Below are positions 6,486 through 49,374 of a stretch of DNA of 64,000 nt, one piece after another (within the stretch, counting starts at the first letter, position 1; the number at the start of each line of letters is the position of its first letter). Under the pieces are notes generated by a model that was not told the origin of the DNA, ran no database searches, and was given only the letters and a program-made list of their open reading frames with translations. The DNA is from an uncultured virus (IMG/VR IMGVR_UViG_3300027734_000046) (taxonomy: Duplodnaviria > Heunggongvirae > Uroviricota > Caudoviricetes). The stretch lies in the IMG/VR virus record IMGVR_UViG_3300027734_000046, positions 1 through 64,000 of that record; one strand, written 5' to 3'. The translations under genes were made by a program, and so were the position numbers.

Positions 6486-6496
6486 ATTATAAATTA

Positions 6497-7590: not shown

Positions 7591-7592
7591 AT

Positions 7593-7624: not shown

Positions 7625-7646
7625 GTACTTTATTTACTTATTATGC

Positions 7647-8465: not shown

Positions 8466-8466
8466 A

Positions 8467-8661: not shown

Positions 8662-8710
8662 AAAATTTATTTTTTTGTAAATTATTATACTAATAAATAT
8701 CTTAAATTAA

Positions 8711-26625: not shown

Positions 26626-26896
26626 ATGATAAGGGAACTTCCCCAGATTTTATTTTATTTTTTAATGCTTCACCACTCACCTTTGTTTTTCTACTACCCT
26701 TAGCGTTTGGATTTCCCCTATTTGTTATCTCTTCAGCCTTAGCTTGTTCTTCTTGTTTTGACTTAATAAGCATTCCCATGTAGTATCTTCTTTCATTTGT
26801 TGGCATATTTAAAACGTCATTATAACCTATTTTTAAATATTGCATACAAACAAATATCTCTTCCCATAAAGATGGTTTATATTGGTAAGTCAGGCC
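26624..26896 (-). CDS. Tail assembly chaperone, second ORF (likely frameshift extension; T4 gp51-/lambda T-like)
   Basis: Overlaps the end of the upstream ORF across a T7 run. EEIF...Y.DVLNMPTNERRYY resembles the phage tail-chaperone motif. Lies immediately before the tape measure gene. Confidence 0.65.
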   Translation of the reverse strand, partial: GLTYQYKPSLWEEIFVCMQYLKIGYNDVLNMPTNERRYYMGMLIKSKQEEQAKAEEITNRGNPNAKGSRKTKVSGEALKNKIKSGEVPLS

Positions 26897-28115
26897 AAAA
26901 AAATCTGACGTTAAGGGGAAGAAAGGTAGAAATAGACTCACCTCTAGGAGTCTTAACTTCGATTGATAGGTCAACCCCACAATCTATTTTTTCAATGTAA
27001 TCTTTTAATTCTTTAGAATCACGAACCCTCATTTTTTCGATAAAATCTTTAATAAAGCCTTTATCTCTATTACCATTTATATCTACAATTTGTCTCTCTA
27101 ATCTATATGTAATTACACTATTTACAGGTATTTCATTTTTTTCATCCTCAGCAACCAACTTTTCAATTTGGTTTAAATCACCTACTGTCAACAATTTAAA
27201 TTTAATATTTGCCTTTGCTATTGGTAAATAAAAATCAAAATAACCTTCAGCATCTGGCTCTTTCGATAATTTAATAGTTTTTAGGCTATTTAAATCAACT
27301 TCGCTTTCAAATGGTGCACCATCTTCATCATACATTGTAATCGGGTACATTTCACCATAACTTGTTGCTCTTAACCATAACATGATAGCATTTCTATCAC
27401 CAACATGTAAATCATTATATCTTAGGTCTGGTTCCAATAATTTTCTATTAATTAGAATTTCCAAAAATTCACCACTCTGTAATAGATTCGGAGACGTTAG
27501 GATATTCTCATCTGCCGTTGTCATATAGGCAACCTTAACACTTGATTTTTTATTTTTATATAGTTTACCCTCAGAAGGTAAAGGAATAACGTCAAAAGCT
27601 GCGTTATATTGTGGTTGGCTTAATTGTTGAATATACATATCACTGTTATTCATAATTAAATTAGATGGTCCCATATTAGTTATTGGTTGTTTAGATTCTG
27701 ATTTCAAAGGAACTTTTTGTGGTTCTTGATACTGCGGCTGTTGTTGTTGATATTGCTGCTGCTGATACTGCTGCTGATATTGTTCTTGTTGTACCTGTTG
27801 CTTTTGTGGTTGTTGTGGTTGTTGTTGATACGGTTGCTGTGTCCTTTCAGACGCCGTATTAAAACTATTTTGATATTGTTGAGTATTCTCAACATTTCTT
27901 TTCAATTGTTCATCTCTTAATCTAATTTGTTCTTCAGTCCTTTGACGCATAACTTCGACCGCTGACATGTTAGTTTCGTTCATCGAGTTGGTATATATTT
28001 CGTTTGCGGCTTCGATTCTCTTTGCTTCGTAATCCGAATCAACATTAACTGGTTGTTGAGGTGTGTTTTGGCTTTGTGGTGTGTTTGTTGGAAACACATT
28101 TGGTTTTTTGTCCAT
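26877..28115 (-). CDS. Baseplate hub/tail assembly chaperone, T4 gp26-like, with Gln-rich N-terminal extension
   Basis: IPLPSEGKLY, MTTADENIL, GDRNAIMLWLRATSYG, IKFKLLTVGD and C-terminal FFWP resemble gp26-like chaperones. Confidence 0.75.
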   Translation of the reverse strand: MDKKPNVFPTNTPQSQNTPQQPVNVDSDYEAKRIEAANEIYTNSMNETNMSAVEVMRQRTEEQIRLRDEQLKRNVENTQQYQNSFNTASERTQQPYQQQPQQPQKQQVQQEQYQQQYQQQQYQQQQPQYQEPQKVPLKSESKQPITNMGPSNLIMNNSDMYIQQLSQPQYNAAFDVIPLPSEGKLYKNKKSSVKVAYMTTADENILTSPNLLQSGEFLEILINRKLLEPDLRYNDLHVGDRNAIMLWLRATSYGEMYPITMYDEDGAPFESEVDLNSLKTIKLSKEPDAEGYFDFYLPIAKANIKFKLLTVGDLNQIEKLVAEDEKNEIPVNSVITYRLERQIVDINGNRDKGFIKDFIEKMRVRDSKELKDYIEKIDCGVDLSIEVKTPRGESISTFLPLNVRFFWPDLPI

Positions 28116-28364: not shown

Positions 28365-28853
28365 TTAGAATAATAAGATTGCTCTGTCAAATCTAAGTGT
28401 TGCGGTGATTTGAGCGATACCATCATCATCCATTGCTAAGTCACCAAAGCCAACGTTTGTAAGCATAGTACCATCTAATAACCATTTTTCTACAACAACA
28501 CCCGTCGGGTCAAGCATTTCAAGTTCAACAGGTCTTTTGTAACCAGCTGCGTAACCTTGACGACCAGTAATAGATTCAGAGTGTAAACGAACCCACTCCA
28601 TTATAGCTTGAGTAGCTGAAGGACCAATAGGGTCTCTAAAAGTAACATCAATAGTTTCCCATGTAAATCTACCAATAACCCAAGTAGAAGTATTCAAGAA
28701 TGGAATCTCAACTTCATTTTGTGTGATTGAAGGTCTAGAAGCAGTTTCTAACCACCATTGCTGAATACCCAAATCAGCTGGGAAAGTGATAAGCCAACGA
28801 TTCTTTTTCTTCGGTTCGTAAGGCAAGGGCATCTTCATGAGTAAATCGGCCAT
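28365..28853 (-). CDS. Tail tube protein (T4 gp19-like)
   Basis: YEPKKKNRW, RPSI, GRFTWETIDVTFRDPI, YKR.VELEMLDPTGVVVEKW, TLRFD. Confidence 0.92.
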   Translation of the reverse strand: MADLLMKMPLPYEPKKKNRWLITFPADLGIQQWWLETASRPSITQNEVEIPFLNTSTWVIGRFTWETIDVTFRDPIGPSATQAIMEWVRLHSESITGRQGYAAGYKRPVELEMLDPTGVVVEKWLLDGTMLTNVGFGDLAMDDDGIAQITATLRFDRAILLF

Positions 28854-28910: not shown

Positions 28911-31850
28911 TTATATTAAACTACTCATTATTTTTTTTATTCTTTCTATCTCTTCAGTCAATACTTTATTTTTACCATTAACCGATTCATATGTTGCTGG
29001 TTTAAATGGTTTAGGTTCATCATCTGATGATTCACCACCACCACCAGACTCACCTGAAGACGCATCAGCATCTGAAGCTCCAGCATCACCACCACTAGGC
29101 GGCGTAGCCGTAGGTGCACCACTTCCACTAGCAGCACCCCCACCAGTACCACCTCCACCAGCAGCACTTCCACCCTTTCCATCTGGTTTTGACTTAATAC
29201 CTAATTTAGCAGCCTGCTTATCTGTATTTTGTTGTTGACCACCCTTTGCAGCCATATTTTTTTTCTGTTGGAACATATATTGAAACAAACCTATTGCATC
29301 AGTCATAAATTGCATTAAATGCTTTTTAAATTTACCTCTATCTTGAGCATCTTTTTCTATTTGTGTACGTTTAAATTGAGCCTCAGCCTCGTCAATATTT
29401 TTAGCACCAACTTTACCCATTCCAGCTAACTTATCCATTAAATCACCTTTTTTAAATTTACCAGTATATACTGTTTTAAAAATGTCATTGATAAATTTAG
29501 CTAAATTTTCATACGTTTGTGGGTTAGCAGATGAAAGATTAAACATTTTATTAAAATCAGTTAATATAATTGGATTTTGTTTAAATGTTTGAAGTTTTTG
29601 GTTAAAAACTTTATCATCCCCACTTTTCATATTTCTAAGCTTATTCCTAATCTGCTCAATTCTATTTAAAAAATCTTCAAACTCTTTAACTCTTTTAGGA
29701 CTAACGTTTTTATTAAGATATTTAACAAGCTCTTTATCTCTAAAGTATTTAGCTTCAGACAAAGGCTTTTTTAAATCTGCCGTCTTAACCGCGTATGTTT
29801 TTTTCTGAGGTCCGTCACCATCAGCATCTATTTGTGTACTTCCTGGTGAAACATCTGGAATTGTAACTGTAACGTTTCTACCTTTGTAAATTGCTTTATC
29901 ACCCTTTTTAAATGTTGTTACATTTGTATCTACATTTGATTCATCATCTGATTTACCCTCTGCTCCAGCACCAAACTTCTTATTGCTAGCAACAACAAAT
30001 CTAAATAAGTTTAATAATGAATTATATAAATCATCGTTAAAACCGCCTTTACCATCACCTTTACCTTTATCACCACCTTCTTCTTTACCTTTATCTTCAA
30101 TTTTTTTAGGGTCTTGTGCTTCATCTTTATCAATGGTTGGACCTTCTGGTTCTACAATACCAGCACCACCCTCAATGTTTAACATTGATTGGTATAGGTC
30201 ATTAAGTGTTTTTGCTCTAGATTGTTTTTGACCTTTCATTCTCATTATCTTAACAAGAGCACCAACACCCAAAAGAGCAACGCCAATTGGACCTAACGCA
30301 GCACCAAATCCTTTTGCCACCAAATATCCAGTACCAGTCTTAATACCTGTTTTAATTGCTACCTTGGTAACAATTTGTGGCACCATTTTAATAAGAATAG
30401 ATGTTAAGTTTCTACCAGCTATTGTACCGTATAAAGTTGTGTCAGGAGTTAATTTACCCGTTCCAGATGCGCCACCGTGGAACATATCATTAAGTGTTTT
30501 AAATTGGTTTGGGTTATTAACTAAATCATGAAGACCTTTAGCTGCTTCAGTTGGTTTCATCATTACACCACCTCTCTGACATAATAAATCAATACCCTTA
30601 TTAGCATCACCACCACCAATTTGCTTAAGTGCGTCAACCAATTCTTGAGGTTTTGAATTTGCATCTAACGGATGCTCTGTAAGACGACCTAAAAGTTTAT
30701 AAACACCTTCACCAGGCTTAATATCATTTAATATTTCACTTTTTGTTTGCAGTAACTCAGTTGTTGTTTCTGTGTCAGTATAGTTATACGGTTGGTCAAA
30801 TAAATGCTTAAACCATTCTGTATTTGCTATCCAACTAAATGCACCCATTGAACCACCTATACCTGCTAATAACAATGGAAGTTTATTTGACTTAAGTGTT
30901 TTCATTCTTTCACTGTCAAAATCTTTACCACCATCACCACGTTTAGCTTGCAATGTTTTTCTTACATTTGCTGCATCATCTTCATTAATTGAGTAGTCAA
31001 CACCCTCTTCATATCTAGAAGCTAATGTGCTAGGACCATCCCAATTACCTACTTCACCTAATCCTAATTCTTCTCTACAATCATTAAGTTCTAATAGGTA
31101 TAAATAATTTAATTTATCTGAGTCTGTAATACCTTTTGATATAGCAAGGTCAACAATTGCTTTTGCTCTTTCTTCACATTCTTTAGGACTACTTATAGAA
31201 TATTTTAAATTTTTACCAGCTTTTTTAAGCTTGTCACCAATATTGTCAAAAAAACCTTCTTCTATTTTTGTTTCACCTAAACCAAAACTTTCGTCTATTT
31301 CTTTTAATTCCTCTTCAGACACTTCAACAACGTTTCCCTCAGCCTCATCAACAACTGAATAAGCTGCTGTTAAATCAACATCTAAGAATTTTTTAACATA
31401 TTCTCTAAGGTCGTTGATAATACCGTTGGCCGCATCGATAGGTAAATAACCCTCTTCATTTGGTTGTTTTAATGTTGCAGCAACAATTGAATCATAAACA
31501 GAAGAAATACCCATAACGGTATTTAAAAAATCAGCACCCTTTTCATTATTAGGGAATTCTGGATTTTGTTCTTTCATTTGAGCATCAAGGGCTTTAATCA
31601 TTTCATTACCCTTTTTATCTATGATTTGCTGAATTTTAGCTGCGGCCTCTTGGTCAATTTTTCCCTTGCCAAAAATTTTACCACCAGCCTTATATCTACC
31701 CAATTTAGATAGACCATATTTAATTTTTTCCCACATTCCTTCGTCAATCATTTCTTCATTCATTGTTGGGTCAACTTCAACCATCTCTCTTAACATGTGG
31801 TTGATAACAACATAATGTTGTTCTTCTGTTAATATAATTTTTTGCGGCAT
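28911..31850 (-). CDS. Large putative internal virion (ejected) protein with two hydrophobic segments
   Basis: KIILTEEQ leader, C-terminal LTEEIERIKKIM, many (I/L/V)xE sites, TM-like LPLLLAGIGGSMGAFSWIA and FGAALGPIGVALLGVGALV. Own ATATTTAT motif upstream. Confidence 0.55.
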   Translation of the reverse strand: MPQKIILTEEQHYVVINHMLREMVEVDPTMNEEMIDEGMWEKIKYGLSKLGRYKAGGKIFGKGKIDQEAAAKIQQIIDKKGNEMIKALDAQMKEQNPEFPNNEKGADFLNTVMGISSVYDSIVAATLKQPNEEGYLPIDAANGIINDLREYVKKFLDVDLTAAYSVVDEAEGNVVEVSEEELKEIDESFGLGETKIEEGFFDNIGDKLKKAGKNLKYSISSPKECEERAKAIVDLAISKGITDSDKLNYLYLLELNDCREELGLGEVGNWDGPSTLASRYEEGVDYSINEDDAANVRKTLQAKRGDGGKDFDSERMKTLKSNKLPLLLAGIGGSMGAFSWIANTEWFKHLFDQPYNYTDTETTTELLQTKSEILNDIKPGEGVYKLLGRLTEHPLDANSKPQELVDALKQIGGGDANKGIDLLCQRGGVMMKPTEAAKGLHDLVNNPNQFKTLNDMFHGGASGTGKLTPDTTLYGTIAGRNLTSILIKMVPQIVTKVAIKTGIKTGTGYLVAKGFGAALGPIGVALLGVGALVKIMRMKGQKQSRAKTLNDLYQSMLNIEGGAGIVEPEGPTIDKDEAQDPKKIEDKGKEEGGDKGKGDGKGGFNDDLYNSLLNLFRFVVASNKKFGAGAEGKSDDESNVDTNVTTFKKGDKAIYKGRNVTVTIPDVSPGSTQIDADGDGPQKKTYAVKTADLKKPLSEAKYFRDKELVKYLNKNVSPKRVKEFEDFLNRIEQIRNKLRNMKSGDDKVFNQKLQTFKQNPIILTDFNKMFNLSSANPQTYENLAKFINDIFKTVYTGKFKKGDLMDKLAGMGKVGAKNIDEAEAQFKRTQIEKDAQDRGKFKKHLMQFMTDAIGLFQYMFQQKKNMAAKGGQQQNTDKQAAKLGIKSKPDGKGGSAAGGGGTGGGAASGSGAPTATPPSGGDAGASDADASSGESGGGGESSDDEPKPFKPATYESVNGKNKVLTEEIERIKKIMSSLI

Positions 31851-32345: not shown

Positions 32346-33869
32346 TTATTCTATATTTAGTTCAAATTTCATATTACCACAATCCCATATTCTATCATAA
32401 CCCTTAATTTTCATTATTTCAAATTCAGATAGTTTGTTATCAAAACCTTCTTTAACTAATACATCCTTTCTAAAATTAAACCTATGATACCTATTGTTAT
32501 ATTCACCTATTTTAACATACCAATAATTTGGTGGTGTATTTTCAATAAATGTAAACCCATTTTTATAATAAACAGTATTTTTATAATCTAAACCTGACCA
32601 CCTAATGTCGGCATATGTTATTACTTTATTTGGTTTGTAATTATCAATAAAATATTTTAATAGTCTTGAAAACCCACCAACAACCCTGTGATTTTTTTTA
32701 TTAACAAACCTCATTAATTCGTATTGATTTTCTTTATCACACCTACCCATTATTTTTCTTAATTTACCAAATGTAATCAGACTAACTAATTCGTTATCAT
32801 AAAATAATCCAAGTCTTATTTTATCGATTGAAGAATCTTGAATATGGTTTTTATTTAAAAATTCATCGGACACTTTCTTATCAACGCTCATTATTGAACA
32901 TTTTCTAGCATATATTTTTTTATTATTTATCATTAAAAAATTTGATAACCTAGAAAGTACTATATCTTTCTTATATAAAATTTCATCTTCAAATATATGA
33001 ACTAATTTTATGTTTGATTCGTGCGCTAGCTTAGATTTATTAATATGGTAATTTCTATCCTTTTCACCATTTATCTCACTATGGTAAAAATTACCATTAA
33101 CCTCGATTCCTAAATTATAGTCATGTAATAACAAATCTATTTCCTGCCCGCTTAATAGTTTTCTAGAATTATCTAAATGGTCAATATTATTTTCGTTTAA
33201 AAAATCACGTATAAATGCTTCTAATTTAGAATTTTTAACCAAAGGAAAACATTTTCTACATATTGGTATTTTACCAGAACCCAAAACTGTACTTGTAAAC
33301 ACGTTATTGCATTTTAAACATTTAAAATTATACGGCATAGATGTTGTCCCACTTTTATTTGCTGTATACTCATCTAATAACAATAAATTATTATCCTCTA
33401 ATTTTGGTAATAAATTATTTATTTGTTTTTCTTTTAACGTATTCTTTAATTTGGTAACCAACCCTTCATGTTTCATTGGATTATCAACTCCGTACTTATC
33501 CACCAAAATTTTCTTTAACCCATTTTTAAACTCATTTTTTTTAAAAATGGAATCAACTCCGTGTTTTTCAAAAAAACTTTTTTTACTAGCTAATATTCTT
33601 TTATCTTTATTCTCCTTAATTTTTCCCCACTTTATCCTACATTCACCAGAACATAACTTTTTTTTATTGTTTATCTTAACTTCAAAATCATTGTTACACA
33701 TATCGCATTTTCTAACCTCCCTAATACTTTCATCTTTTTTTCTACCTATCGTTTTGTTTTTGTTGGCAAATTCAAAATAGCAACTTCTTGAACAATACTT
33801 CTTATCCCTATGTTTATATTCGGCAATAAAATTATTATCACAATTAATACATTTTAATTCTATGTTCAT
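32346..33869 (-). mobile_element. Free-standing homing-endonuclease-like gene (Hef-like PD-(D/E)XK nuclease with Zn-finger repeats)
   Basis: CxxC...YCSRSC and CxxC...LCSGEC fingers, KHGVD/KYGVDNP repeats, EIDL...GIEVNGNFYH nuclease motif, IYARKC...NHIQ...YELMRF...YADIRW...RIWDCG C-terminal domain. Visibly more AT-rich, with its own promoter and terminator. Confidence 0.75.
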
Positions 33870-33987: not shown

Positions 33988-36900
33988 TTAAATGTTATCA
34001 AATGAAGCCCCTGTATTCATAATATTAAATTCTACAATTATAAATTCTAGAGCTCTTGTTGGTTTAAGGTAAATCTTACCAGTTAATTGATTTCTATCGA
34101 TATCTTCTGGGTCGTTACTTAAAACAACTCTGAAATCTACTAAACCTCTTTCGGTTCTAATGCTATCCAATATTGGATTAACAAGTGACAAGAATTGATT
34201 TCTTACGATAGTATCATTTTGTTCGAACAACAATCTAATAGCCACAGCAGAGATAAGTTTTCTAGCTTGTAAAAGAAGTCTTCTAACATTGATTCTGTCA
34301 AGAGCACTTTCTTTAACTTGTAGTGTTTTATTACCCCAAATCTTAATACCATCAGATGTAAATGTTGCGATTGGGTTGATTCTATTTTCGTAAAGAACAT
34401 CTCTTTCACTTAAAGTTAACTTCTTACGAGCTTTAAGAGCGTCAACGTCACCTCTTTGAATACCTGCTACTGCGAACCAAGGGAATGCTATGTTATCAGT
34501 CAAAGCGATGTTTCTCACAACGTCTCTTGTTGGTGGAACGTAAACATACACATTGTTCTCAGCATCAAGGATTTGAATCCAAGGCCAGTATGTTGCTGTG
34601 TAGCTACTATCATACATATCTGATAATTGGTCTGTTACGTCACCAACTGTTAATACTGTTCCTGCAGAATCGGTATCAGGCGTTGTTACAACATATAAAG
34701 AGTCAGCTCTGTCTTGCTCAATCATTTCGATACTAGCTTCAACAAGATTTGTGTTATCAAACGTATCAATACCAGGCGTAGCAAACACATTAACATTTAC
34801 AGCCTCTGGGTTTTTAAATGTCCAGATACCCTCTAAGTAAGCGTAGTAATCAGATGTAATACCTAAATCACCGTTAGTTAGAGTTTTGTTTGCAAACGTA
34901 CCTACTGCTAAACCAGCAGCACCCTTGGTACCATTGATAGTAAAGCTATCTAAGTTAGTTCTTCTTGTTCTGTAAGGGTCGAAACCGTCGAATCCGCCAT
35001 AAGGTGCAAAAGTAAATTTACGAGCGTACACTTTCTCATATGGGCCGTTAGCTAAACCAGCGTCAGTTCTAAACTGCCAGTCACCAGTATCAAATAAGAA
35101 TATTGGACTATATGTGTTACCTGAGTTATCAATAACAACTTTAACATTGTCAATTGTAGCACCTGTAGCGTCGATATCCATGTGGAAACCTTTGGTTAAA
35201 CCAGTCCACATATCATAATCTTGTCCAACAGGTATACCTTTGTAATCAAAGAAATCAGCGTCTATACCTATTGTATTAGATAAACCTAAATAGTATTTAC
35301 GTTTGTTTTCAAAAGCGCCATATTTTTGCTTATACATTATGCTTGGTGTTTGAACATCAGGGTTAGAGTTAATTTCATAATCTCTAACTGGGAATCCAAC
35401 AAAACCAGCTGGGAATGCATCACTTGTATCAGAACTTTCATCAAGTTCAAGTAAAATGTGAGCAGATTTTGATGCATATACACCATCTAATGTACCGATT
35501 CTTCTAGCAACAAAGTTGTTTGAAGTTGGGTCCATTGTACAACGTGTGTAAGCTTCGATGATATTAGGTGCCGCATCTGTATCATAAAAACCTCTTACCA
35601 ATACATCAAACTCTCTTGTATCTGGTTTAATGTTAGCAATTGAAATTTTATATTGTTCGTTTGCTGCGTTACCGTCAGATATTGTCCAAATTCTAAATAA
35701 TCTTAACAATTTATTACCTCTTAATTCTGATACAACATAAGGTGTAACAGCTGGTTGGTATTCTTGTAAGTAGTCAGAGTATTGACCAGCGTAGTCGATA
35801 ATATCTAAATTGATACCTCTAACTTTACCATCATTAACATACTCAACAAACATTTTATCAAAGAATTCTTCAACGTATACTGCAGTTTCACCATCTAAAG
35901 CAGTTCTACCAAGAACTTTTGTTATGTAATTTCTTTGTGTTCTATCGAAAGAGCAATCATAAGAGAATGCACCCTGTGTATTTGATGTACCAATTAAAGC
36001 GAATGAACCGTAAGGGTTTTGTTCTGCTGTGGTAATGCTTGAATTAAAATTCAATCCTGTTGTTGCACTAACTTGGAATACTGGTAATTGAGTTTGAGCA
36101 TTAACTTTACCTCTAGAACGAAGCAAAGTAATTAATTTATCCTCAACATCTGCGTATCCTTTACCAACAGTATATGTTGTAAAACCAGATGTTGTACCTG
36201 TTTTATACATTGATATTGAAGTACCTGAGTAATAGTTTACAACTGCTGATGTTGTACCAGTATTATAAAACAAACCAGTACCTGAATATACACCTGTAAA
36301 ACCAGATGTTGTACCTGTTCTATAAACTGTTAATGGGTCACCAGAGAAGTAGAATACATTACCAATAGTTGTACCTGTTTTATAGTTAATACCAGAACCA
36401 GAATAGAATGTTGTAACACCTGAGGCTTGGCCTGATATGTATGCTGCTGTTTGAGCGCCACTATACTGTATTGTAAATCCAGATGTTGTACCTGAGATAA
36501 GTCTAGTGTTTGAAGCACCAGTATAATATTGAATATACCCACTTGTCAAACCAGTATAAATATTTGGTGTTGATGTTGAACCTGTACTTAAAATAATTGC
36601 AACACCATAAACACCAACATAAGTTGTTGCATTTATTGCGGTATAAGAACTAGGAACACCTTGTACACTATATAGTAATCCAACACCAGTTCCAGGTGAA
36701 TTTTTTAAACCAAAATAATTACCTTGCAATATTCCAGCGGTTTCCATTGTATTATATGGTTCACTAGTTGTTAAATAAGTAACATTTACAGTGCTAGATG
36801 TTGTAGCGGCAGTAAATCGTATAAATGAACTAATAAGTGGTGTTGCTCCGCTAAAACCTACCGAACTTTGATTTAAACTTTGTGGTGTTACACCAGAAGT

Positions 36901-38898
36901 TGCTGCAGAGAATACCGCAGAAGCACCAACATAAGATGAACCGCTTTGTACAAAACTAAGAGGTACACTAAACGATGTACCAACTGGTGCACCACTAAAC
37001 AATGTGGCTAAACTAAAGTTATTAGCAACATACATTGCATTAAGAACATTGTTATTAATAACATAACTTGTGCTGTTTGTTATTGGGTTTGTTTGATAAG
37101 TAATTAACGGATTAGCATTTATAGGGGTGGCAACACCACCTGTAGCACCAGTAGTTGTTGTATTAATTGCTGCTGGAACAGTTACTTTACTTACAATAAT
37201 ATAACTTGAAGAAGCACCAGTATAAACCGCACCAGAACCTGTCATAACAAAAGGAATTACACCTCTAACACCAGAATTTAACCCAGGTAATGAAGCTAAA
37301 CTAAATAAAGAAGCGCCATAAAATGCACTTGTTAATGGGTCTGAAATTACAGTATTTGTTAATGAACCACTAGTTGTTGCTGTATATCTAATTAATGGGT
37401 TATAGTTTGCTGTTGTTGAAACACCAGTACTAGATGCATTGAAATAGTATGGTGTAATACCTGTTTGTGATACAGTATATGTTGAACTAGCACCAGTAAA
37501 AATTGAACCGTTATAAATAAATGATAAAGGTATTGTACTAGTTGTACCAGTTGCTGTTGCGGGTAATCCGCTAAGACTAATATTACCAGCTTGGTATAAA
37601 CTATTAGTTAATGGGTCTGCAATAGTTGCGGTAATTAATGTATTACCAGTTGTTGCTGTATAATTTATAAATGGTACAAAACTACCACTAGTTGTAGCCG
37701 CAGTTGTTGTTGTATTAATACCACTTTGCGTTAAGCCAGTGGCAATTACAACGTAGTTAGATTCATTACCAGTAAAACTAGTACCTACGTTTACATAGTT
37801 TCTAGCTATTGAACCAGTCGCACCAACTGCCAAGCTAGATAACCCAGTTAAACTAAAATTTGAGTTATTATAACCAGCATTTGTATTTGGCTCGTTGATT
37901 TGAACAGCAGAAAGAACACCACCAGTTGTTGATGTATAAACAATAAATGGATTTGTATTTGCGCTACTAATTAAAGCAACACTAGCAGCACTTAAAGTCA
38001 TTGTTGTTGTACCAGCAGAAATAAGTGTATAAACTGCACCAGCACCACTATAATTTGAACCACCAACATTTATAAATGAATTAGAAATAACATCAGATTG
38101 ACTTATTGTTAGACTAGGCAATGTACTAAGACTAAAATTACCGTTGTTATAAAGGCTTGATAATAGAGTATCATTTATAGTTACTGTTACCAAATTATTT
38201 GAGGCGTCTGCTGTAAATGATGCAAATGGGAGGATACTTACATTTGTTAGTGTTGCACCTGTAGTTGTTGGGTCTAACACATTTGGTGTTGAACCAGCGT
38301 TAACAACCAACAATTGACTGCTAGCACCTGTAAATAAACCACCAACTTTTTCTAGCGAAACACTCAACGATAATATTTGACCATTTGTTAATGTTGGTAA
38401 CAAAGCTAAACTAACACTACCATTGTTAACTAAATAACTTAATAATGGGTCACTAATAGTTGTACCTATTAATACGTTAGAGTTTGTTGCAGTATATACA
38501 ATACTAGGATTATACGAGCTTGTTGTTGCTGTTATTGTTGAATTATCCAAAGCAGCATCCATCGTTATACCCCAAGCTTTACCTGCATCATAACCAGAAA
38601 AACCAAGAATTCTTGTTACAAATAATTGGTTTGATTGTGATAGATATGATTTTGCGATATATGGTAATTCATACAAAGGTGCGCCGTTTCCGTCTGGACC
38701 GTTTACCAATGTATTATTTAAACCACCGAAAAACGATTGAAACTCGCCGTAGTTACTTACGAAAATAGGTTGAAATGCTGGTCCTTTGGTTGTTTCACCC
38801 ACCAAACCCAATGTCGTAACACCTACTTGACGTGTTACAAATGTTAAGTCTTTTTCTGAGGTGTAGACACCTGGACTAACGAATACTTTTTCTGCCAT
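33988..38898 (-). CDS. Contractile tail sheath protein (T4 gp18-like) with an ~800-aa repetitive insertion
   Basis: FVSPGVYTSEKD, GETTKGPAF, FATPGID, YWPW, PWFAVAGIQRG, LYENRINPI, IWGNKTL, RINVRRLL, LLFEQND, LKPTRALEFI. Confidence 0.95.
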   Translation of the reverse strand: MAEKVFVSPGVYTSEKDLTFVTRQVGVTTLGLVGETTKGPAFQPIFVSNYGEFQSFFGGLNNTLVNGPDGNGAPLYELPYIAKSYLSQSNQLFVTRILGFSGYDAGKAWGITMDAALDNSTITATTSSYNPSIVYTATNSNVLIGTTISDPLLSYLVNNGSVSLALLPTLTNGQILSLSVSLEKVGGLFTGASSQLLVVNAGSTPNVLDPTTTGATLTNVSILPFASFTADASNNLVTVTINDTLLSSLYNNGNFSLSTLPSLTISQSDVISNSFINVGGSNYSGAGAVYTLISAGTTTMTLSAASVALISSANTNPFIVYTSTTGGVLSAVQINEPNTNAGYNNSNFSLTGLSSLAVGATGSIARNYVNVGTSFTGNESNYVVIATGLTQSGINTTTTAATTSGSFVPFINYTATTGNTLITATIADPLTNSLYQAGNISLSGLPATATGTTSTIPLSFIYNGSIFTGASSTYTVSQTGITPYYFNASSTGVSTTANYNPLIRYTATTSGSLTNTVISDPLTSAFYGASLFSLASLPGLNSGVRGVIPFVMTGSGAVYTGASSSYIIVSKVTVPAAINTTTTGATGGVATPINANPLITYQTNPITNSTSYVINNNVLNAMYVANNFSLATLFSGAPVGTSFSVPLSFVQSGSSYVGASAVFSAATSGVTPQSLNQSSVGFSGATPLISSFIRFTAATTSSTVNVTYLTTSEPYNTMETAGILQGNYFGLKNSPGTGVGLLYSVQGVPSSYTAINATTYVGVYGVAIILSTGSTSTPNIYTGLTSGYIQYYTGASNTRLISGTTSGFTIQYSGAQTAAYISGQASGVTTFYSGSGINYKTGTTIGNVFYFSGDPLTVYRTGTTSGFTGVYSGTGLFYNTGTTSAVVNYYSGTSISMYKTGTTSGFTTYTVGKGYADVEDKLITLLRSRGKVNAQTQLPVFQVSATTGLNFNSSITTAEQNPYGSFALIGTSNTQGAFSYDCSFDRTQRNYITKVLGRTALDGETAVYVEEFFDKMFVEYVNDGKVRGINLDIIDYAGQYSDYLQEYQPAVTPYVVSELRGNKLLRLFRIWTISDGNAANEQYKISIANIKPDTREFDVLVRGFYDTDAAPNIIEAYTRCTMDPTSNNFVARRIGTLDGVYASKSAHILLELDESSDTSDAFPAGFVGFPVRDYEINSNPDVQTPSIMYKQKYGAFENKRKYYLGLSNTIGIDADFFDYKGIPVGQDYDMWTGLTKGFHMDIDATGATIDNVKVVIDNSGNTYSPIFLFDTGDWQFRTDAGLANGPYEKVYARKFTFAPYGGFDGFDPYRTRRTNLDSFTINGTKGAAGLAVGTFANKTLTNGDLGITSDYYAYLEGIWTFKNPEAVNVNVFATPGIDTFDNTNLVEASIEMIEQDRADSLYVVTTPDTDSAGTVLTVGDVTDQLSDMYDSSYTATYWPWIQILDAENNVYVYVPPTRDVVRNIALTDNIAFPWFAVAGIQRGDVDALKARKKLTLSERDVLYENRINPIATFTSDGIKIWGNKTLQVKESALDRINVRRLLLQARKLISAVAIRLLFEQNDTIVRNQFLSLVNPILDSIRTERGLVDFRVVLSNDPEDIDRNQLTGKIYLKPTRALEFIIVEFNIMNTGASFDNI
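36157..38550 (-). repeat. Seven ~92-aa repeats followed by seven ~19-aa repeats inside the sheath
   Basis: Long units start at 38550, 38277, 37995, 37719, 37443, 37167 and 36876. Short units (Y.TGTTSG....YSG) span 36561-36157. Confidence 0.9.
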
Positions 38899-39667: not shown

Positions 39668-40678
39668 TTACCATGTATAAACCCTTACTTCACCACGACC
39701 ACCAGTACCACCAGCACCACTATTTCCAGTGTTGGTAGCATTACCACCACCACCACCTCCACCACCACATGCACCACCATTTCCTCCTGCTTCACCGTTA
39801 ATATTACCAGAAGCAGCCGCAGCACCCCCACCACCACCACCACCATTACCACATTTTATGGAATTTCCGCTAGCACCTGTACTACCAGATGTTGGCGCTG
39901 TTGAACTATTAGCCCCAGGTGCAGAACCACCACCTGAAATATATGACCCCGAAGTGCCACCAGAAGTCGGAGCAACACCAACATTACCACTACCAGTACT
40001 ACCACCAACACCACCGCCACCAGCACCAAATATCGAACTACCCCCATCTTTAGGGATAAGGTTAGTAACACCTCTAGAACCGCCAGAGCCACCACCATAT
40101 TCAGCGTTTCCACTACCTAAACCAGCTGTACTAGAACCTAGTCCAGACGCTCCTTGACCACCTATAGCTATTAAAGATGCTACTCCAGGTACCCCACCAC
40201 CGTATGTTGCAGTTGTAGTAATACCACTTAAACCAGCACCACCATTACCACCACCACCACCACCAACCTGAGCTGTCGTTGCTGACAAACCACCAATACC
40301 ACCACCACCAGCATAACCAATTAATTGTGTTGCTCCAGAACTAAAAAAAGAGTTTTCACCATTACCACCACCTCTTCCAATACCAGAAATAGTTACACTA
40401 GCCCCACCAATACCGCCAGAACCAACAAATATTGGTTCTGTACTAGACAACGTACTTGCTAAATAAAATTTTTCAGCATATGCGCCACCACCACCACCAG
40501 TCCCACCCGTTCTATTATTACCGTTGTTTGCTTTTGCGCCACTACCACCTCCACCCCCAGCACCAATACATACAACATATACGAATTTTGCACCTGTCGG
40601 TTTTACCCAAGTCGAATTACCAACAGTTGTAAACACCTGTAAATCTGGTACTTCGTTTATATTATTATTTATTGCCAT
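39668..40678 (-). CDS. Glycine-rich tail fibre tip/adhesin paralog 3
   Basis: QVFTT..STWVKPTGAKFVYVVCIGAGGGGG, poly-Gly runs, C-terminal GGRGEVRVYTW. Confidence 0.75.
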   Translation of the reverse strand: MAINNNINEVPDLQVFTTVGNSTWVKPTGAKFVYVVCIGAGGGGGSGAKANNGNNRTGGTGGGGGAYAEKFYLASTLSSTEPIFVGSGGIGGASVTISGIGRGGGNGENSFFSSGATQLIGYAGGGGIGGLSATTAQVGGGGGGNGGAGLSGITTTATYGGGVPGVASLIAIGGQGASGLGSSTAGLGSGNAEYGGGSGGSRGVTNLIPKDGGSSIFGAGGGGVGGSTGSGNVGVAPTSGGTSGSYISGGGSAPGANSSTAPTSGSTGASGNSIKCGNGGGGGGGAAAASGNINGEAGGNGGACGGGGGGGGNATNTGNSGAGGTGGRGEVRVYTW

Positions 40679-40690
40679 AATTATTTTTTT

Positions 40691-41677
40691 TTAAAAAGTA
40701 TACACTCTTACTTCACCACGACCACCAGCACCACCATTACCAGCACCAATATCCGCACCACAACCACCTCCACCACCTCCACCGCCTGCACCGCCTACAC
40801 CACCATTACCACCTATTGTGTTTGGTGTTATTGTTCCACCACCACCACCACCACCAACACCATATGAAGTACCTGTACCACCTGATGTTGGTGATGCACC
40901 ATTTGTACCGCCTGAAGCACCACCACCAACAACATAAGAACGACTAGTACCGCCTGAGGTTGAATTTACAAGTATAGTACCAAGATAATTTGAGGTTCCA
41001 CCAGCACCACCACCGCCACCACCAAATAATGATGAACCTCCAGGACCAATTGCTGGTGTAAGACTACCATCATGACCACAACCACCTCCACCACCATATT
41101 CAGTTAAACCTCCATTAGTTGGGTTACTACCACCACTTGCCCCCGTACCACCAATACAAGTTTGAGCCACTACAGGGCTTACTGCGGCATAACCTGGTTG
41201 CCCTCCAATAGCAACCAATGAATCACCAACACTACCAGCCCCACCAGTACCACCACCACCACCACCACCAGCACCTATATCAATACCACCTCTAGCACCA
41301 CCACCACCACCATAACTAACCAAATATGTTGTTGCACCTGTACCAAAAAAAGAACTACCACCAATTCCACCAGATGTTGTTGACCCTGAAAGTCCACTGG
41401 TACCACCAGTACCACCAGCACCTACAACAATAGGCACCGTGTTAGCTAAATCACTTGCACTAAATACTTTATAAGCAAAAGCACCACCACCACCACCAGC
41501 ACCACCCCATTTAGGTGCTGTTCCTAAAGAGTATGAAGCACCACCACCACCTCCACCAGCACCAATACACACAACATATACGAATTTTGCACCAGTCGGT
41601 TTTATCCATGTCGAACTACCAACAGTTGTAAACACCTGTATGTTTCTTGCAGAATTTATACTATTATTTATTGCCAT
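40691..41677 (-). CDS. Glycine-rich tail fibre tip/adhesin paralog 2
   Basis: Same N- and C-terminal framework as its neighbours (ends GGRGEVRVYTF). Confidence 0.75.
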   Translation of the reverse strand: MAINNSINSARNIQVFTTVGSSTWIKPTGAKFVYVVCIGAGGGGGGASYSLGTAPKWGGAGGGGGAFAYKVFSASDLANTVPIVVGAGGTGGTSGLSGSTTSGGIGGSSFFGTGATTYLVSYGGGGGARGGIDIGAGGGGGGGTGGAGSVGDSLVAIGGQPGYAAVSPVVAQTCIGGTGASGGSNPTNGGLTEYGGGGGCGHDGSLTPAIGPGGSSLFGGGGGGAGGTSNYLGTILVNSTSGGTSRSYVVGGGASGGTNGASPTSGGTGTSYGVGGGGGGGTITPNTIGGNGGVGGAGGGGGGGGCGADIGAGNGGAGGRGEVRVYTF

Positions 41678-41690
41678 TTTTAATTTATTA

Positions 41691-42683
41691 TTACCACGAA
41701 TAAACCCTTATTTCACCGCGACCACCAGCACCGCCAGTGCCACCACTGCTAGCACGTGTACCGCCCCCACCACCTCCACCACCGCCACCAGGCGCACCAC
41801 CAACACCACCATTAGTACCTGCTGTATTTAAAGTTGCGGTTCCACCGCCACCTCCACCTCCATCGCCAGAACCATTACCTTTATTTGTACCTGTTCCACC
41901 CGAAGTTGGTGATATACCACTTGTTCCAAAAGCACCACCCGTAATACCAGTATAAGTACCTGAACTTCCGCCTGGTTTTGCGTCATAAACAGTCGGTACG
42001 CTATTTGCACCTCCACCAGCACCGCCTCCGCCACCACCATATAATGAACATCCGCCTGAAAAATTAATACCAGTCGTCGAAGTTCCACCACCCCCAGCAC
42101 CACCATATTGAGCAGCACCACCCGACGGAGCAGCAATTGTTCCAGCGCCACCAGTGCCACCAAAAGCTAAAGTGGTTGTACTTGCTCCTGCTGGATTACC
42201 ACCTGCAACAGCGGCACCAGCACCAGCAGCACCAACACTAACAGTACCACCTCCACCACCACCTGAATTAGAAACTGCCGTAACTCTACCCCCAGCACCA
42301 GAACCACCTCCATAGGCTGTTAATATTGTTAAACCTGAACTAAATATTGAATTACCACCTGTAGAACCAATAACACCTACGTTAGAGGCATTACCAGCAC
42401 CACCCGCACCACCAGTCCCACCCGAGGCAACTGTAATTGGTTCTGATAACGATAACTCCGAGGCTAAGTAAAGTTTTGAAACAAAAGAAGCCCCTCCACC
42501 GCCACCACCACCCATTCTATATGTTGCTCCAGATGCTGAACCTCCGCCACCTCCGCCACCTCCGCCACCAATACATTCAACATACACGAATTTAACCCCA
42601 ACGGGTTTTATCCAAGTATTAGAACCTACGGACGTAAATATTTGAACGTTTGAAACTTCATTTATACTATTATTTACTGCCAT
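41691..42683 (-). CDS. Glycine-rich tail fibre tip/adhesin paralog 1
   Basis: Same framework (ends GGRGEIRVYSW). Confidence 0.75.
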   Translation of the reverse strand: MAVNNSINEVSNVQIFTSVGSNTWIKPVGVKFVYVECIGGGGGGGGGGSASGATYRMGGGGGGGASFVSKLYLASELSLSEPITVASGGTGGAGGAGNASNVGVIGSTGGNSIFSSGLTILTAYGGGSGAGGRVTAVSNSGGGGGGTVSVGAAGAGAAVAGGNPAGASTTTLAFGGTGGAGTIAAPSGGAAQYGGAGGGGTSTTGINFSGGCSLYGGGGGGAGGGANSVPTVYDAKPGGSSGTYTGITGGAFGTSGISPTSGGTGTNKGNGSGDGGGGGGGTATLNTAGTNGGVGGAPGGGGGGGGGGTRASSGGTGGAGGRGEIRVYSW

Positions 42684-42690: not shown

Positions 42691-43812
42691 TTAATTTAAT
42701 GTTATCGTACCTACCGCAGATACCACAGTAAATACCGTATTTGCACTAGTACAAACTAATCTAATAGAATCACCATTATTTTGTGAAACTAATGTACCTG
42801 ATGTTTGTGTTGTCGTTATAATACCAAATCTTATAAATTGATTTACGTTTTGTGTTATTGTAAATAAACTATCTGACGCTGAAACAACTTCAATAACACT
42901 ACCCAAGCTTGCGGATACTGGCAAATTAATTAATGTTGTGCCTGTTGTTATATATCCATTATTAGTTGATGCTGTTATTGGAGACGTTGCAAATTGCCAT
43001 GTTAATCCACCACTACCAGTACTAAAACCTGTTATTGTGTTTCCATTAACATTTCCCGTTCCACTTAATGTGATTGTTCCGTTAGAATATGTTCCACCTG
43101 TAACAGCATTAACATTTTGATATGTTGTTGCTGATATTGTATTTGCTGTTAACCCACTAATAAATGATGTTGCACCACTAACTGTACCACCTGTAAAAGA
43201 TGTTGCTGTATTTGTACTAAAACCTGTAATTTGTATTCCGTTAACACCACCACTACCACTAAGCGTAAGCGTTCCGTTTAAATAAGAACCACCTGTAACA
43301 GCACTAATGGTGTAAGTAACTGCCGCACTACTATTTGATGTAACACTCAATACATTACCTGATAGTGTAGTTGCACTAATATAAGTAGGTAAATTAAGAT
43401 ACGTTGTTGCACTTATTGTATTTGCCGTTAATCCTGATAATAAAGTATTACCTGTAACATTTAATGTGTTTGCGGTTAATCCCGATTGGAATATTGTATT
43501 TCCCGTTACCGTACCCCCACTTAATGGGAGATACGCTCCCGACGTAGATGAACTACCCGTATATGCGGACAGGCTTATTGTAAATGCAGAATACTGTCCT
43601 GTTATATTTTGCCTTAAAGTTATTGTATTACTAGATAACGTAAACCCCGTAACAAACGTATCAGTTGTAACTGGTAAGTTAAGATATGTTGTTGCAGATA
43701 ACGTATTTGCTGTCAGACCACTAACAATTATATTGTCAAAATTACCACTAGCGTTTAACTGCGGATACCCATATGGCTGATTAGCCCTATCTAATGTTAT
43801 TATTGTCTTCAT
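42691..43812 (-). CDS. Tail fibre-like protein (Thr/Ser/Gly-rich repeats)
   Basis: SGLTANTISATTY, DTFVTGFTLSSNTITL and YLPLSGGTVTG modules shared with 46435-49374. C-terminal INLPVSASLG..IEV...GDSIRLV domain. Confidence 0.7.
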   Translation of the reverse strand: MKTIITLDRANQPYGYPQLNASGNFDNIIVSGLTANTLSATTYLNLPVTTDTFVTGFTLSSNTITLRQNITGQYSAFTISLSAYTGSSSTSGAYLPLSGGTVTGNTIFQSGLTANTLNVTGNTLLSGLTANTISATTYLNLPTYISATTLSGNVLSVTSNSSAAVTYTISAVTGGSYLNGTLTLSGSGGVNGIQITGFSTNTATSFTGGTVSGATSFISGLTANTISATTYQNVNAVTGGTYSNGTITLSGTGNVNGNTITGFSTGSGGLTWQFATSPITASTNNGYITTGTTLINLPVSASLGSVIEVVSASDSLFTITQNVNQFIRFGIITTTQTSGTLVSQNNGDSIRLVCTSANTVFTVVSAVGTITLN

Positions 43813-46434: not shown

Positions 46435-49374
46435 TTACATTATTTGAACCCAACCAAATGATTTATATAAAAAATAACCCTCATCGGCATCGGTTTGATA
46501 AACAATTAAACCAGCTGTTGCAGTTATTGCCAATCTTTGTGCTTCAGTCATTCTTGGACCTAAAAACCCTTTGGTTGTTGAAGAAATTTCAAACAAGGCT
46601 GAAGCAGAAGGTGTTGCTGTTCCAATACCCACACTACCACCACTTAGTACAAGATTATTTGCTGACGTAGATGAACTAAAATTTAATGTCCTTCCACTTA
46701 AATCAACTATCCTATTACTATTTAAAACACCATTACCCGTATACAACGTGTTAGGTAAATTTTGATATGTTGTTGCTGATACCGTATTTGCTGTTAAACC
46801 ACTAATAAATGATGTTGCACCACTTACAGTACCACCACTTAATGGTAAAAATGCCCCACTTACAGATGTTGAGCTACCAGTATATGCAGACAGGCTTATT
46901 GTAAATGCAGAATACTGTCCTGTTCTATTCTGTGTTAGTGTTATTGTATTTGACGATAATGTAAACCCTGTGACAAAAGTGTCGGCAGTTACAGGTAAAT
47001 TTTGATATGTAGTTGCAGATATTGTACTTGCTGTTAAACCAGCTAAAAGTGTATTACCAGTTATAGTTAATGTATTTGCTGTTAAACCAGCTAAAAGTGT
47101 ATTACCAGTTATAGTTAATGTATTTGCTGTTAAACCAGCTAATCTAGTATTTCCAGTTACAGTTAACGTATCAGCAGTTACAGCGGCTAATCTAGTACTG
47201 CCAGTTACATTTAATGTATTTGCGGTTATAGCAGCTAATCTAGTACTGCCAGTTACGGTTAATGTATTTGCAGTTATATTACTTAAATTTGTATTACCAG
47301 TTACATTTAATGTATTTGCTGTTAAACCACCAGTAAATACCGTATTACCTGTTACCGTACCACCACTTAATGGAAGATAAGCACCTGATGCAGATGAACT
47401 ACCTGTATACGCCGATAAACTAATTGTAAACGCTGAGTATTGGTCGGCTCTATTTTGTGTAAGTGTTATTGTATTTGACGATAATGTAAACCCTGTGACA
47501 AAAGTGTCGGCAGTTACAGGTAAATTTTGATATGTAGTTGCAGATATTGTATTTGCCGTTAGCCCACTTAAGAAATTTGTTGCACCACTAACTGTACCAC
47601 CAGTAAATGTAGTACTAGAAGTAATACCACTAACATTAAATGTACCGCCTGTGTTATTTGTAAATATAAGTGTACTAGCAGCAGCGCTATATGTACCACC
47701 AGTTACAAATACATCTTTAGGTAAATTTTCATACGTTGTTGCTGATATTGTATTTGCTGTTAACCCGCTTTGGAATACTGTTGGACCACTTACTGTTCCA
47801 CCAGTAAAAGTAACCGCATTAGAAATAACTTGCGTACTTAGTTTACCTGTACTATCAGCAACAACCATTCTTGTAGTACTACCTGATAGATTACCAAATA
47901 TTATATCACCTGTTTTATTTTCAAATGCAATATGTGTTGTACCCGTTAGTGCAGAAAGAGTTGGATTATAATATATACCCCTGACTTTAGTACCTGTTTG
48001 TCCTGTAATATTAATTACTGGGTCTATTAGTAATGTTGCTGCTTCAAAGTTAATATCATTAGGGGTTTGCCACCCATAATTAATGTCAACTATAGATGAA
48101 TTAGTTTGATTCCATTCTCTAGTTTGCCCATAACTAAATCTTGATATAAATGCCCATTTATCTTTAGCACCACCTTGTTCATCTTCCATGAAATATGTAG
48201 ATGCACCATTTATCTTTCTTCTCCATATACCTACATATCCACTTGGGATACTTGTAGATGTGGTATCTATTTGAAAATAATTATTTATATATAAATTTGT
48301 GTCAACATATAATTCATTAGTAAATCTACCATTCCCAAATACATCTAATTTATAAGTAGGTGTATCTGTTCCAATACCTATTTTACTATCGTTACTTAAT
48401 ACTAATAGATTAGTATTCCATGTACTTGCTGAACTACTTGTTGTTTCTAATATCAATTTAGCACCTGTAGTGGTTAATCCACTAGGATTTGTAGAAAGTA
48501 CACGAGCCCCAGGCGTATACGCCACATTTACATTTGAATGACCAAATTCTAATACATTTCTATTTAGAGGTGCGCTACCTTTATCCCATAATCTTAACGC
48601 AACATTTTCAAATGTGCTAGCTCCGCCTATGATTGATACTCCTGGACCTGCACCAATACCATAATCAACTTCTAATTTAGCTGTTGGCGTTGTTGTCCCT
48701 ATACCGACATTACCACCACTCATAACAAGCGTGTCAGGATTTGTTACTGAACTAAAATTTAATGTTTTTCCACTTAAATCAACTATTCTATTACCACTTA
48801 AAACACCATTACCCGTATACAACGTGTTAGGTAAATTTTGATATGTTGTTGCCGATATTGTATTTGCAGTTAATCCACTAGTAAATACTGTTGCACCATT
48901 AACAGTACCACCTGTAAATTGAGCACTAGCGATTATTCCCGTTAATTTAGAGCCATCCCCATAAAACGTATCACCACTTATTGTTGTTGCTGATATCGTA
49001 CTAGCTGTCAAACCACTTTGGAATATTGTATTACCAGTAACAGTACCACCACTTAACGGTAAATAGTTACCAGACGCTGTTGATGTTGAACCTGTTGTAA
49101 AACCTGTAACTTGAAATGTACCGCCTGTTGAATTAACAAATGTTGCAGTACCTGTAGTATTATTATATGTACCACCAGTCACATACACATTTAATGATGA
49201 ACCAGTAAGTCCTGATAATGTTATAGTAAAAGCTGAATATTGGTCAATTCTATTTTGTGTTAGGGTAATATTGTTTGATGACAAGGTAAACCCAGTCACA
49301 AAGGTATCATCAAGCACCAACGGCTCAATTATAAATGTTTCATTAATATCCCCAAAGTTATTTATACAGCTCAT
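46435..49374 (-). CDS. Long modular tail fibre protein
   Basis: Reused modules (FTGGTV, SGLTANTISATTY, NVGIGT, YLPLSGGTV), six 16-aa tandem repeats, C-terminal KGFLGPRMT...GLIVYQTD...W. Confidence 0.75.
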   Translation of the reverse strand: MSCINNFGDINETFIIEPLVLDDTFVTGFTLSSNNITLTQNRIDQYSAFTITLSGLTGSSLNVYVTGGTYNNTTGTATFVNSTGGTFQVTGFTTGSTSTASGNYLPLSGGTVTGNTIFQSGLTASTISATTISGDTFYGDGSKLTGIIASAQFTGGTVNGATVFTSGLTANTISATTYQNLPNTLYTGNGVLSGNRIVDLSGKTLNFSSVTNPDTLVMSGGNVGIGTTTPTAKLEVDYGIGAGPGVSIIGGASTFENVALRLWDKGSAPLNRNVLEFGHSNVNVAYTPGARVLSTNPSGLTTTGAKLILETTSSSASTWNTNLLVLSNDSKIGIGTDTPTYKLDVFGNGRFTNELYVDTNLYINNYFQIDTTSTSIPSGYVGIWRRKINGASTYFMEDEQGGAKDKWAFISRFSYGQTREWNQTNSSIVDINYGWQTPNDINFEAATLLIDPVINITGQTGTKVRGIYYNPTLSALTGTTHIAFENKTGDIIFGNLSGSTTRMVVADSTGKLSTQVISNAVTFTGGTVSGPTVFQSGLTANTISATTYENLPKDVFVTGGTYSAAASTLIFTNNTGGTFNVSGITSSTTFTGGTVSGATNFLSGLTANTISATTYQNLPVTADTFVTGFTLSSNTITLTQNRADQYSAFTISLSAYTGSSSASGAYLPLSGGTVTGNTVFTGGLTANTLNVTGNTNLSNITANTLTVTGSTRLAAITANTLNVTGSTRLAAVTADTLTVTGNTRLAGLTANTLTITGNTLLAGLTANTLTITGNTLLAGLTASTISATTYQNLPVTADTFVTGFTLSSNTITLTQNRTGQYSAFTISLSAYTGSSTSVSGAFLPLSGGTVSGATSFISGLTANTVSATTYQNLPNTLYTGNGVLNSNRIVDLSGRTLNFSSSTSANNLVLSGGSVGIGTATPSASALFEISSTTKGFLGPRMTEAQRLAITATAGLIVYQTDADEGYFLYKSFGWVQIM
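46937..47551. repeat. Exact 90-nt direct repeat (46937-47026 and 47462-47551) flanking a 48-nt tandem array
   Basis: agtgttattgtatttgacg...gcagatattgta is identical in both copies. About six 48-nt units (TANTLxVTGxTxLAxx) lie at ~47040-47327. Confidence 0.9.

Follow-up and report, generated by a model that had tools for sequence, protein, structure and literature searches.

Seven long and seven short repeats in a contractile tail sheath point to recursive self-insertion of a surface domain

The tail sheath protein of phage T4, gp18, is described as a set of domains inserted one in another: domain I in domain II, II in III, and III between the termini, which together form domain IV. Domain I, a contiguous segment (residues 98-188), is a six-stranded barrel with a helix, and the nested domains have unrelated folds (PMC3004832). 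Here we describe a sheath of the same family, encoded on the minus strand in 64,000 nucleotides from an uncultured virus of the Caudoviricetes (positions 1 to 64,000 of IMG/VR record IMGVR_UViG_3300027734_000046; hereafter the window), that carries seven long repeats (A units) followed by seven short ones (S units). As in gp18, its domains are inserted in one another, and the repeat domain, A+S, occupies the equivalent place in the chain (after amino acid, aa, ~115), with six strands and a helix in the model of a relative; this likeness is one of element count and position only, and no sequence similarity between the A+S region and gp18 domain I was detectable. The sheath differs from gp18 in that the outermost domain would be nested seven times with copies of itself.

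Large phages are known to build outward from the sheath in other ways. Multi-domain ('type 3') sheaths are reported to have 'five and more' domains, mostly Ig-like and some formed from two regions of the chain, and roles in adhesion or stabilisation have been proposed for the extra surface domains (PMC9230969). They resemble the present case in adding surface domains away from the tube-contacting core, but the word 'nested' is absent from that survey's text, and 'repeat' was not found in it either (PMC9230969). Rak2-like jumbo phages (phAPEC6, CBB) have hairy or whiskered tails with a proposed role in host interaction (PMC7247149, PMC5259590); the hairs have been ascribed to fibres distinct from the sheath and set at three rings (PMC7247149). 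They too have filaments projecting from a contractile sheath, whereas here the projection would belong to every sheath subunit, in a phage known from sequence alone.

Recursive nesting of homologous domains has been described in Si3 of the cyanobacterial RNA polymerase beta' subunit, where SBHM-2 to SBHM-5 are assembled from segments far apart in the chain (PMC10895346); among 2.7 million domains surveyed in 2026, Si3, nested over six levels, is the deepest case reported (PMC13114784). In Si3, as in the sheath array, the insertion must return to its starting point. Si3 is an irregular, swordfish-shaped module of a cellular enzyme that combines continuous and split SBHMs, whereas the array in the sheath follows a strict A^7 S^7 order, would have one returning strand per level, belongs to a virion protein and has graded relatives with 0, 1, 2 or 7 units. 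Counting host domains, it would also be deeper than Si3, and as a case of recursive domain insertion it would be unusually regular and deep. A preliminary description of this DNA, whose interpretation is supported in part by the present data, knew of no comparable array. Recursive nesting as such has its precedent in Si3; no description of a regular, self-nested A^n S^n array, in a sheath or elsewhere, was found in the open-access literature searched. Completion of an incomplete beta fold by a strand from another subunit is familiar from donor-strand complementation in chaperone-usher pili; here, by contrast, the predicted donor of the strand is a far-off segment of the chain that receives it.

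The sheath protein and its repeat units

The open reading frame (ORF) of 1636 aa encodes the contractile, T4 gp18-like tail sheath of a large myovirus. It matched the PHROG tail sheath family phrog_23 (E 2.7e-56) and phrog_10581 (E 4.3e-36), and two Pfam sheath domains fell at aa 1349-1626, both under their curated cut-offs (PF04984, 28.1 bits with a cut-off of 31.4; PF17482, 23.0 with a cut-off of 26.9). Annotated sheath genes of many myoviruses were matched by tblastn, restricted to aa ~970-1636, among them that of Flavobacterium phage immuto (40.5% over aa 1354-1633). The array region was covered by none of the 2665 phage records with a tblastn match to the sheath. The parts of the gene are listed below; the E values are those of a hidden Markov model (HMM) built from relatives with one A and one S unit (the 1+1 HMM, described in the next section), and dN/dS is the ratio of nonsynonymous to synonymous substitution rates.

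33988..38898, minus strand: tail sheath gene, 1636 aa plus stop; ORF with phrog_23 match
38554..38898, minus strand: N-terminal sheath core, aa 1-115, with WGITMDAA as its last strand; kept in all relatives; dN/dS 0.00-0.08
38275..38553, minus strand: A1, aa 116-208; the outermost unit by sequence and the predicted base of the rod; E 1.9e-14, states 1-92
37996..38274, minus strand: A2, aa 209-301; E 3.4e-12
37720..37995, minus strand: A3, aa 302-393; E 9.7e-12
37444..37719, minus strand: A4, aa 394-485; E 6e-17
37156..37443, minus strand: A5, aa 486-581; E 4.2e-13
36874..37155, minus strand: A6, aa 582-675; E 5e-06
36562..36873, minus strand: A7, aa 676-779; divergent, 103-121 aa among orthologs, predicted tip; ortholog identity 0.38
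36502..36561, minus strand: S1, aa 780-799; predicted to close A7; varies more than any other S unit (identity 0.51)
36157..36501, minus strand: S2-S7, aa 800-914; predicted returning strands that would close A6 to A1 in that order
33991..36156, minus strand: C-terminal sheath body, aa 915-1636; PHROG and sub-cut-off Pfam matches

The array spans aa 116-914 and consists of seven long units, A1-A7 (~92-104 aa), and then seven short units, S1-S7 (17-20 aa). It begins after WGITMDAA (aa 109-116) and ends before YADVEDKLITLLRSRG (YADVEDK), which starts at aa 915; in the window, positions 36157-38550 correspond to aa 117-914. Seven long and seven short repeats are what the preliminary description had reported, and both sets were recovered here, including all seven of the S strings that it quoted. 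The A units share an anchor, P/S-x-I-x-[YF]-[TQ], found at aa 131, 224, 317, 409, 501, 597 and 691 (spacings 93, 93, 92, 92, 96 and 94), with one unrelated extra match at aa 1509. Our boundaries give A-unit lengths of 93, 93, 92, 92, 96, 94 and 104 aa; the units are those given earlier as 91, 94, 92, 92, 92, 97 and 105 aa, with the boundaries between them placed differently.

The first six long units, A1-A6, can be aligned with almost no gaps (pairwise identity 24.7-41.3%). The longer A7 shares 16.1-26.9% identity with the others, and its homology is supported by an hhalign match to the A1-A6 profile (probability 78.8%, E 2e-6, 89 columns). With the lowest identity among orthologs and the highest dN/dS as well, A7 is the most divergent unit, as had been proposed. 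The S units start at aa 780, 800, 820, 839, 859, 878 and 898 and are very regular and rich in Thr, Gly and Tyr. A loose S pattern matched six of the seven; among 2000 shuffles of aa 116-914, 1995 contained no match and five contained one, so the S repeats are not due to chance. The leaders of the A units are likewise Thr-rich and S-like.

The single domain and its relatives

To see one domain in isolation, we used AlphaFold2 (AF2) to model L008, the closest relative with a single A and a single S unit (945 aa; 76% identical to the window's sheath in the best tblastn segment), from an alignment of 132 rows. The model had a predicted local distance difference test score (pLDDT) of 89.7, with 83-96 over the A+S domain, and a predicted template modelling score (pTM) of 0.84. 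Structure comparison found the sheath fold in this 1+1 relative of the window's protein: Foldseek matched it to T4 9mkb (E 8.8e-26), and VIA-align matched it to the Klebsiella phage KP1 sheath (Z 37.3, root-mean-square deviation 3.5, 453 aligned) and to T4 gp18 3j2m (Z 27.7). By sequence, L008 matched T4 gp18 at E 1.3e-31, with similarity limited to the N-terminal ~60 and C-terminal ~310 aa. A look-up of the 1+1 domain in the ESM Atlas returned unnamed viral clusters only.

The modelled domain has six strands and one main helix (151-158), with a short helical turn at 165-169. Its A part consists of a 16-residue leader (123-138), which forms one continuous strand with the PLVTFTAT segment, strands 143-148, 175-179 and 183-185, and an 18-residue last strand (188-205). 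After a two-residue turn comes S, a 17-residue strand (208-224) that leads back into the sheath body. With only two residues between them, S and the last strand of A almost certainly form a hairpin in this model. The DSSP string suggests that its turn would be at the distal end of the domain, because the leader starts and S ends at the base. The earlier proposal that one domain comprises an A and an S unit agrees with these observations: relatives of ~945 aa have exactly one of each, and S is the last strand of the domain in a confident model.

We then mapped the single domain onto the window's protein with the 1+1 HMM, whose 111 states were built exclusively from 36 distinct 1+1 domains of other phages, making the comparison non-circular. 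A1-A6 matched states 1 to ~92 (E 6e-17 to 5e-6), S2, S3 and S5 matched states 92-111, and A7 and S1 together gave one weak full-length match (states 4-111, E 0.045); S7 was below significance, and S4 and S6 had no separate report. The A units of the 7+7 protein (92-96 aa) are as long as the A part of the single domain without its S. A leader and an S, both Thr-rich strands, are required for every domain, and the 7+7 protein has seven leaders and seven S units for its seven cores.

The same alignments bear on a different register, in which the Thr-rich leader of unit i+1 would close unit i in a zig-zag tandem, with S2-S7 as a surplus tail. On three units, A3, A4 and A5, the 1+1 HMM runs on into the next S-like leader (states up to 104-106), as it does in the two-domain form L143, which leaves room for another assignment of strands. 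A shifted register, however, needs eight strands for seven cores, not 14, and does not account for S units keeping pace with A units in number; moreover, the leader in the 1+1 model is continuous with the PLVTFTAT segment that follows it. We regard this arrangement as highly improbable.

Relatives fall into a small number of classes. Searching 5.8 billion proteins with the array region returned 14 hits: the query, ten orthologs (1635-1653 aa) and three proteins of 946-952 aa. The 7+7 orthologs are 54-93% identical over the array, and all 11 proteins of this class have seven A and seven S units; A7 alone varies in length among them (103-121 aa). At the other extreme, one protein of 810 aa (P0024) has nothing at the insertion site. 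The majority class is 1+1 (~945 aa; P0012-15), with exactly one A and one S between flanks like those of the 7+7 proteins. Across 78 IMG/VR loci, we found 52 distinct single-A ORFs of full length (943-955 aa), 7+7 genes in four complete and two truncated copies, and one form of 1064 aa, L027. This last was tried as a 2+2 form and set aside: it reads A, ~123 aa, S, and the similarity of its middle unit to A (E 0.11) and to the tip (E 0.074) falls short of significance, so that L027 is possibly 2+2.

A metagenome scan and a further protein search identified a 2+2 class of 1055-1064 aa (L143, P0165, P0166, P0167 and P0168). On the 1+1 HMM each of these proteins opens with an A match (E 1e-14 to 1e-16), continues with a complete A+S domain (E 1.8e-6 to 1.2e-15) and closes with a lone S (states 89/91/93-111, E 0.001-0.005). 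At the level of sequence, this pattern is the signature of a complete domain copy inside the terminal hairpin of another copy. Domains made of two segments that flank a complete inserted domain were found, again as profile matches, in the 2+2 forms and in P0017, where A is followed by ~190 aa of unrelated sequence and then by S; the foreign segment at the A/S turn indicates that the turn tolerates a nested domain. Both cases fit the suggestion of the preliminary description that new copies were inserted in the hairpin before the last strand.

That description had also predicted equal numbers of long and short units in homologous sheaths, and our survey gave only 0, 1+1, 2+2 and 7+7, always in the order A^n S^n. 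Neither an (AS)n order nor unequal A and S numbers were seen among the relatives found, and none of those with A units fell in the length range from 1065 to 1634 aa.

Repetitive regions in metagenomes can be mis-assembled, and an assembly or annotation artefact would be a trivial source of such an array. The units, however, are 16-41% identical, too divergent for collapse or expansion in assembly, and the reading frame stays open, its dN/dS clearly below 1. The window's sheath gene is 100% identical on IMG/VR contigs from three samples (L001, L002 and L004), and the 11 orthologs, at 54-93% identity, share one layout. Given this recurrence across samples and orthologs, the array is not an assembly artefact, and we consider the chance of one negligible.

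A representative search showed that the insertion site is a hot spot across related sheaths. In P0016, an ice-binding-like domain (PF11999, E 2.5e-14; aa 123-326) stands just before A+S. P0113 has three simple tandem repeats of ~108 aa, of a different domain, at the site of the array (aa 93-431), and in P0092 (1832 aa) a GGSGYT.P.V repeat of ~40 aa recurs many times farther along the chain (aa ~330-1050).

Probable nesting and its alternatives

The best-supported reading of these data, favoured by indirect evidence and in our view probable, is nesting: copies of the whole domain placed in its own terminal hairpin, so that A_i would be closed by S_(8-i). The A+S unit is the outermost surface domain of the sheath, at the chain place of the protruding domain I of T4 gp18, and in most relatives there is one such unit of ~110 aa, a ~92-aa A part (leader, short strand, helix, two short strands and a long last strand) completed by a 17-aa closing strand S. 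In this lineage, whole-domain copies would have been placed repeatedly into the terminal hairpin. The chain would then run outward through seven open A parts, turn after A7 and come back as seven S strands, with S1 closing A7, S2 closing A6 and so on to S7 closing A1, before re-entering the sheath body. The product would be seven serially nested domains per sheath subunit, most simply arranged as a doubly threaded rod, with the distal A7+S1 as a contiguous, complete tip domain that is fast-evolving and probably contacts a ligand. Mirrored pairing is the sole unknotted way to supply each A with the strand it lacks, and it would return the chain to its exit point. Pairing order, rod shape and adhesive role are what we infer from this scheme; the repeats and their numbers, their homology to the A and S parts of one domain, the secondary structure of that domain, the hot spot for insertions and the pattern of selection are observed.

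A fuller picture is offered more tentatively, and we think it somewhat less likely to hold in every part than to fail in one. Every subunit might carry a rod tens of nanometres (nm) long, made of seven barrels each threaded twice, with its length set by nesting depth and, at its tip, a hypervariable, highly multivalent adhesin of low affinity for the host surface; this might be the most deeply nested architecture known of any protein, counting host domains, and self-insertion of the domain into its terminal hairpin might have occurred at least twice.

Several results weigh against nesting. AF2 modelling of aa 100-930 from 11 sequences gave pLDDT 38 and pTM 0.22, a model too poor for reading the anti-diagonal contacts that the preliminary description had predicted. 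In the 1+1 model, the pairing of S with the last strand of A was read from the DSSP string and not from coordinates. When the distance matrices of A and S units were compared in mirrored order (Mantel test), r was 0.51-0.65, ranking 407-525 of 5040 permutations; the top permutations have only A7 with S1 in common, units that are adjacent in the sequence anyway. The correlation in conservation between A_i and S_(8-i) is high (r 0.88), but 324 of 5040 permutations equal it, and it depends on A7/S1 alone. Unit-specific HMMs placed the S of 1+1 forms closest to S2 (36/60) and not S7, so there is no simple orthology of the outer units; the A of 1+1 forms was closest to A1 (37/60, a count biased by the common flank) or A4 (17). 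The middle unit of L027 was not recognised as an A+S copy. Finally, a tally with separate A-only and S-only HMMs over 108 full-length ORFs gave A and S counts of (1,1) in 88, (1,2) in 12, (1,0) in two and (2,0) in two, scored four 7+7 proteins as six A with four to seven S, and missed L143 as 2+2; we rejected this way of counting units as too noisy.

In the Mantel test, direct mapping of A to S units was negative; distances and conservation alike favour the mirrored order over the direct one, with a signal that stems from A7 and S1 only. A complex prediction of A3-A4 (aa 302-485) with S4-S5 (aa 839-877), run without controls, gave no answer (score 0.00) and is evidence neither way.

An alternative is a fold of separate parts, with the A units as autonomous tandem domains, like beads, and the S units as a beta structure of their own (a hairpin stack or solenoid) that brings the chain back. 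No structure shows contacts between A and S in a 7+7 protein, and the regularity of the S units and their richness in Thr, Gly and Tyr are as in fibrous beta structures. Yet, by position and by sequence, S is the homologue of the strand that ends the single domain, the A units are as long as this domain minus that strand, and separate parts leave the equal counts of the 1+1, 2+2 and 7+7 forms unexplained. We find this explanation unlikely.

Equal counts would likewise be required if the S strands were donated to the A units of adjacent sheath subunits, so that the tail surface became a knitted mesh, and a sequence does not tell pairing within a chain from pairing between chains. Against such donation, S1 directly follows A7, as S follows A in the monomeric 1+1 model, which AF2 predicts confidently without a partner. 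A mesh must also survive the large rearrangement of contraction, and the outer domain of the T4 sheath is described as having no inter-subunit contacts (PMC3004832). Exchange between subunits thus seems quite improbable to us.

If nesting is true, the array would rank with the deepest nested arrangements observed in proteins, and the sheaths related to it make up a natural series of a self-inserted domain, at 0, 1, 2 and 7 levels and with many sequences per level, that is usable for studying how recursive domain insertion arises and folds. For protein design, it could provide a route from one module to rigid, doubly tethered rods of set length. It would also be a new way to a 'furry' contractile tail, made from the sheath protein itself instead of added fibre proteins, and a fast-evolving tip could bear on host recognition.

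Evolution of the array and neighbouring genes

In a tree built on the C-terminal sheath core, the 7+7 proteins form one clade (support 0.985-0.996) among 1+1 forms. L143, which is 2+2, pairs with a 1+1 form as its sister (0.977) inside the same wider clade (0.90); with the 7+7 clade also lying within 1+1 forms, nesting would have arisen at least twice. L027 was placed as sister of the 7+7 clade with weak support (0.60-0.68).

The array is under purifying selection: dN/dS is 0.20-0.25 in A1-A6 and 0.13-0.27 in S2-S7, as compared with 0.00-0.11 in the sheath core. The putative tip evolves fastest, with 0.72-1.07 in A7 and 0.29-0.71 in S1, and these two units together vary most. In the comparison of the window with L003, dS is 0.3-0.5 in the flanking units and two to three times as high, ~0.8-1.0, in the tip unit (aa 676-799). 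This raised dS in A7 and S1 suggests that the tip has been exchanged or replaced as a cassette and hints at recombination. A conserved stalk with a fast-changing tip would fit a surface-contacting or adhesive role, by analogy with the roles proposed for additional sheath domains (PMC9230969).

Genes for the tail tube and the baseplate hub lie downstream of the sheath gene on the same strand.

28365-28853, minus strand: tail tube gene; phrog_4542, E 4.9e-26
26877-28115, minus strand: baseplate hub gene; phrog_150

Directly downstream of the sheath gene, before the next structural genes, is an HNH/homing endonuclease gene (32346-33869, minus strand; 507 aa; phrog_3339, E 6.2e-107), where local GC content falls to 0.27. 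The tail module also contains two giant ORFs on the minus strand, 9738-16859 (2373 aa) and 17221-23745 (2174 aa), without a PHROG match at E<=1e-5; the same holds for two ORFs of 979 aa, at 28911-31850 and 46435-49374.

On the other side of the sheath gene, positions 39668-42683 (minus strand) encode three tandem paralogous glycine-rich proteins of 336, 328 and 330 aa, with a common N-terminus, MA(I/V)NN.IN, and C-terminus, RGE(V/I)RVY(T/S)(W/F). They lie in a GC peak of 0.47 (~0.33 otherwise), and one of them weakly matches PHROG tail-fibre/minor-tail families. Next to this trio is the gene for a Thr/Ser-rich repeat protein of 373 aa (42691-43812).

Two metagenome contigs suggest duplicated sheath genes. 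L142 has sheath-like ORFs at 898-3762 (954 aa) and 5678-8791 (1037 aa) with a reverse ORF of 609 aa between them, and L136 has two neighbouring sheath-like ORFs, at 3-1256 and 1358-4309.

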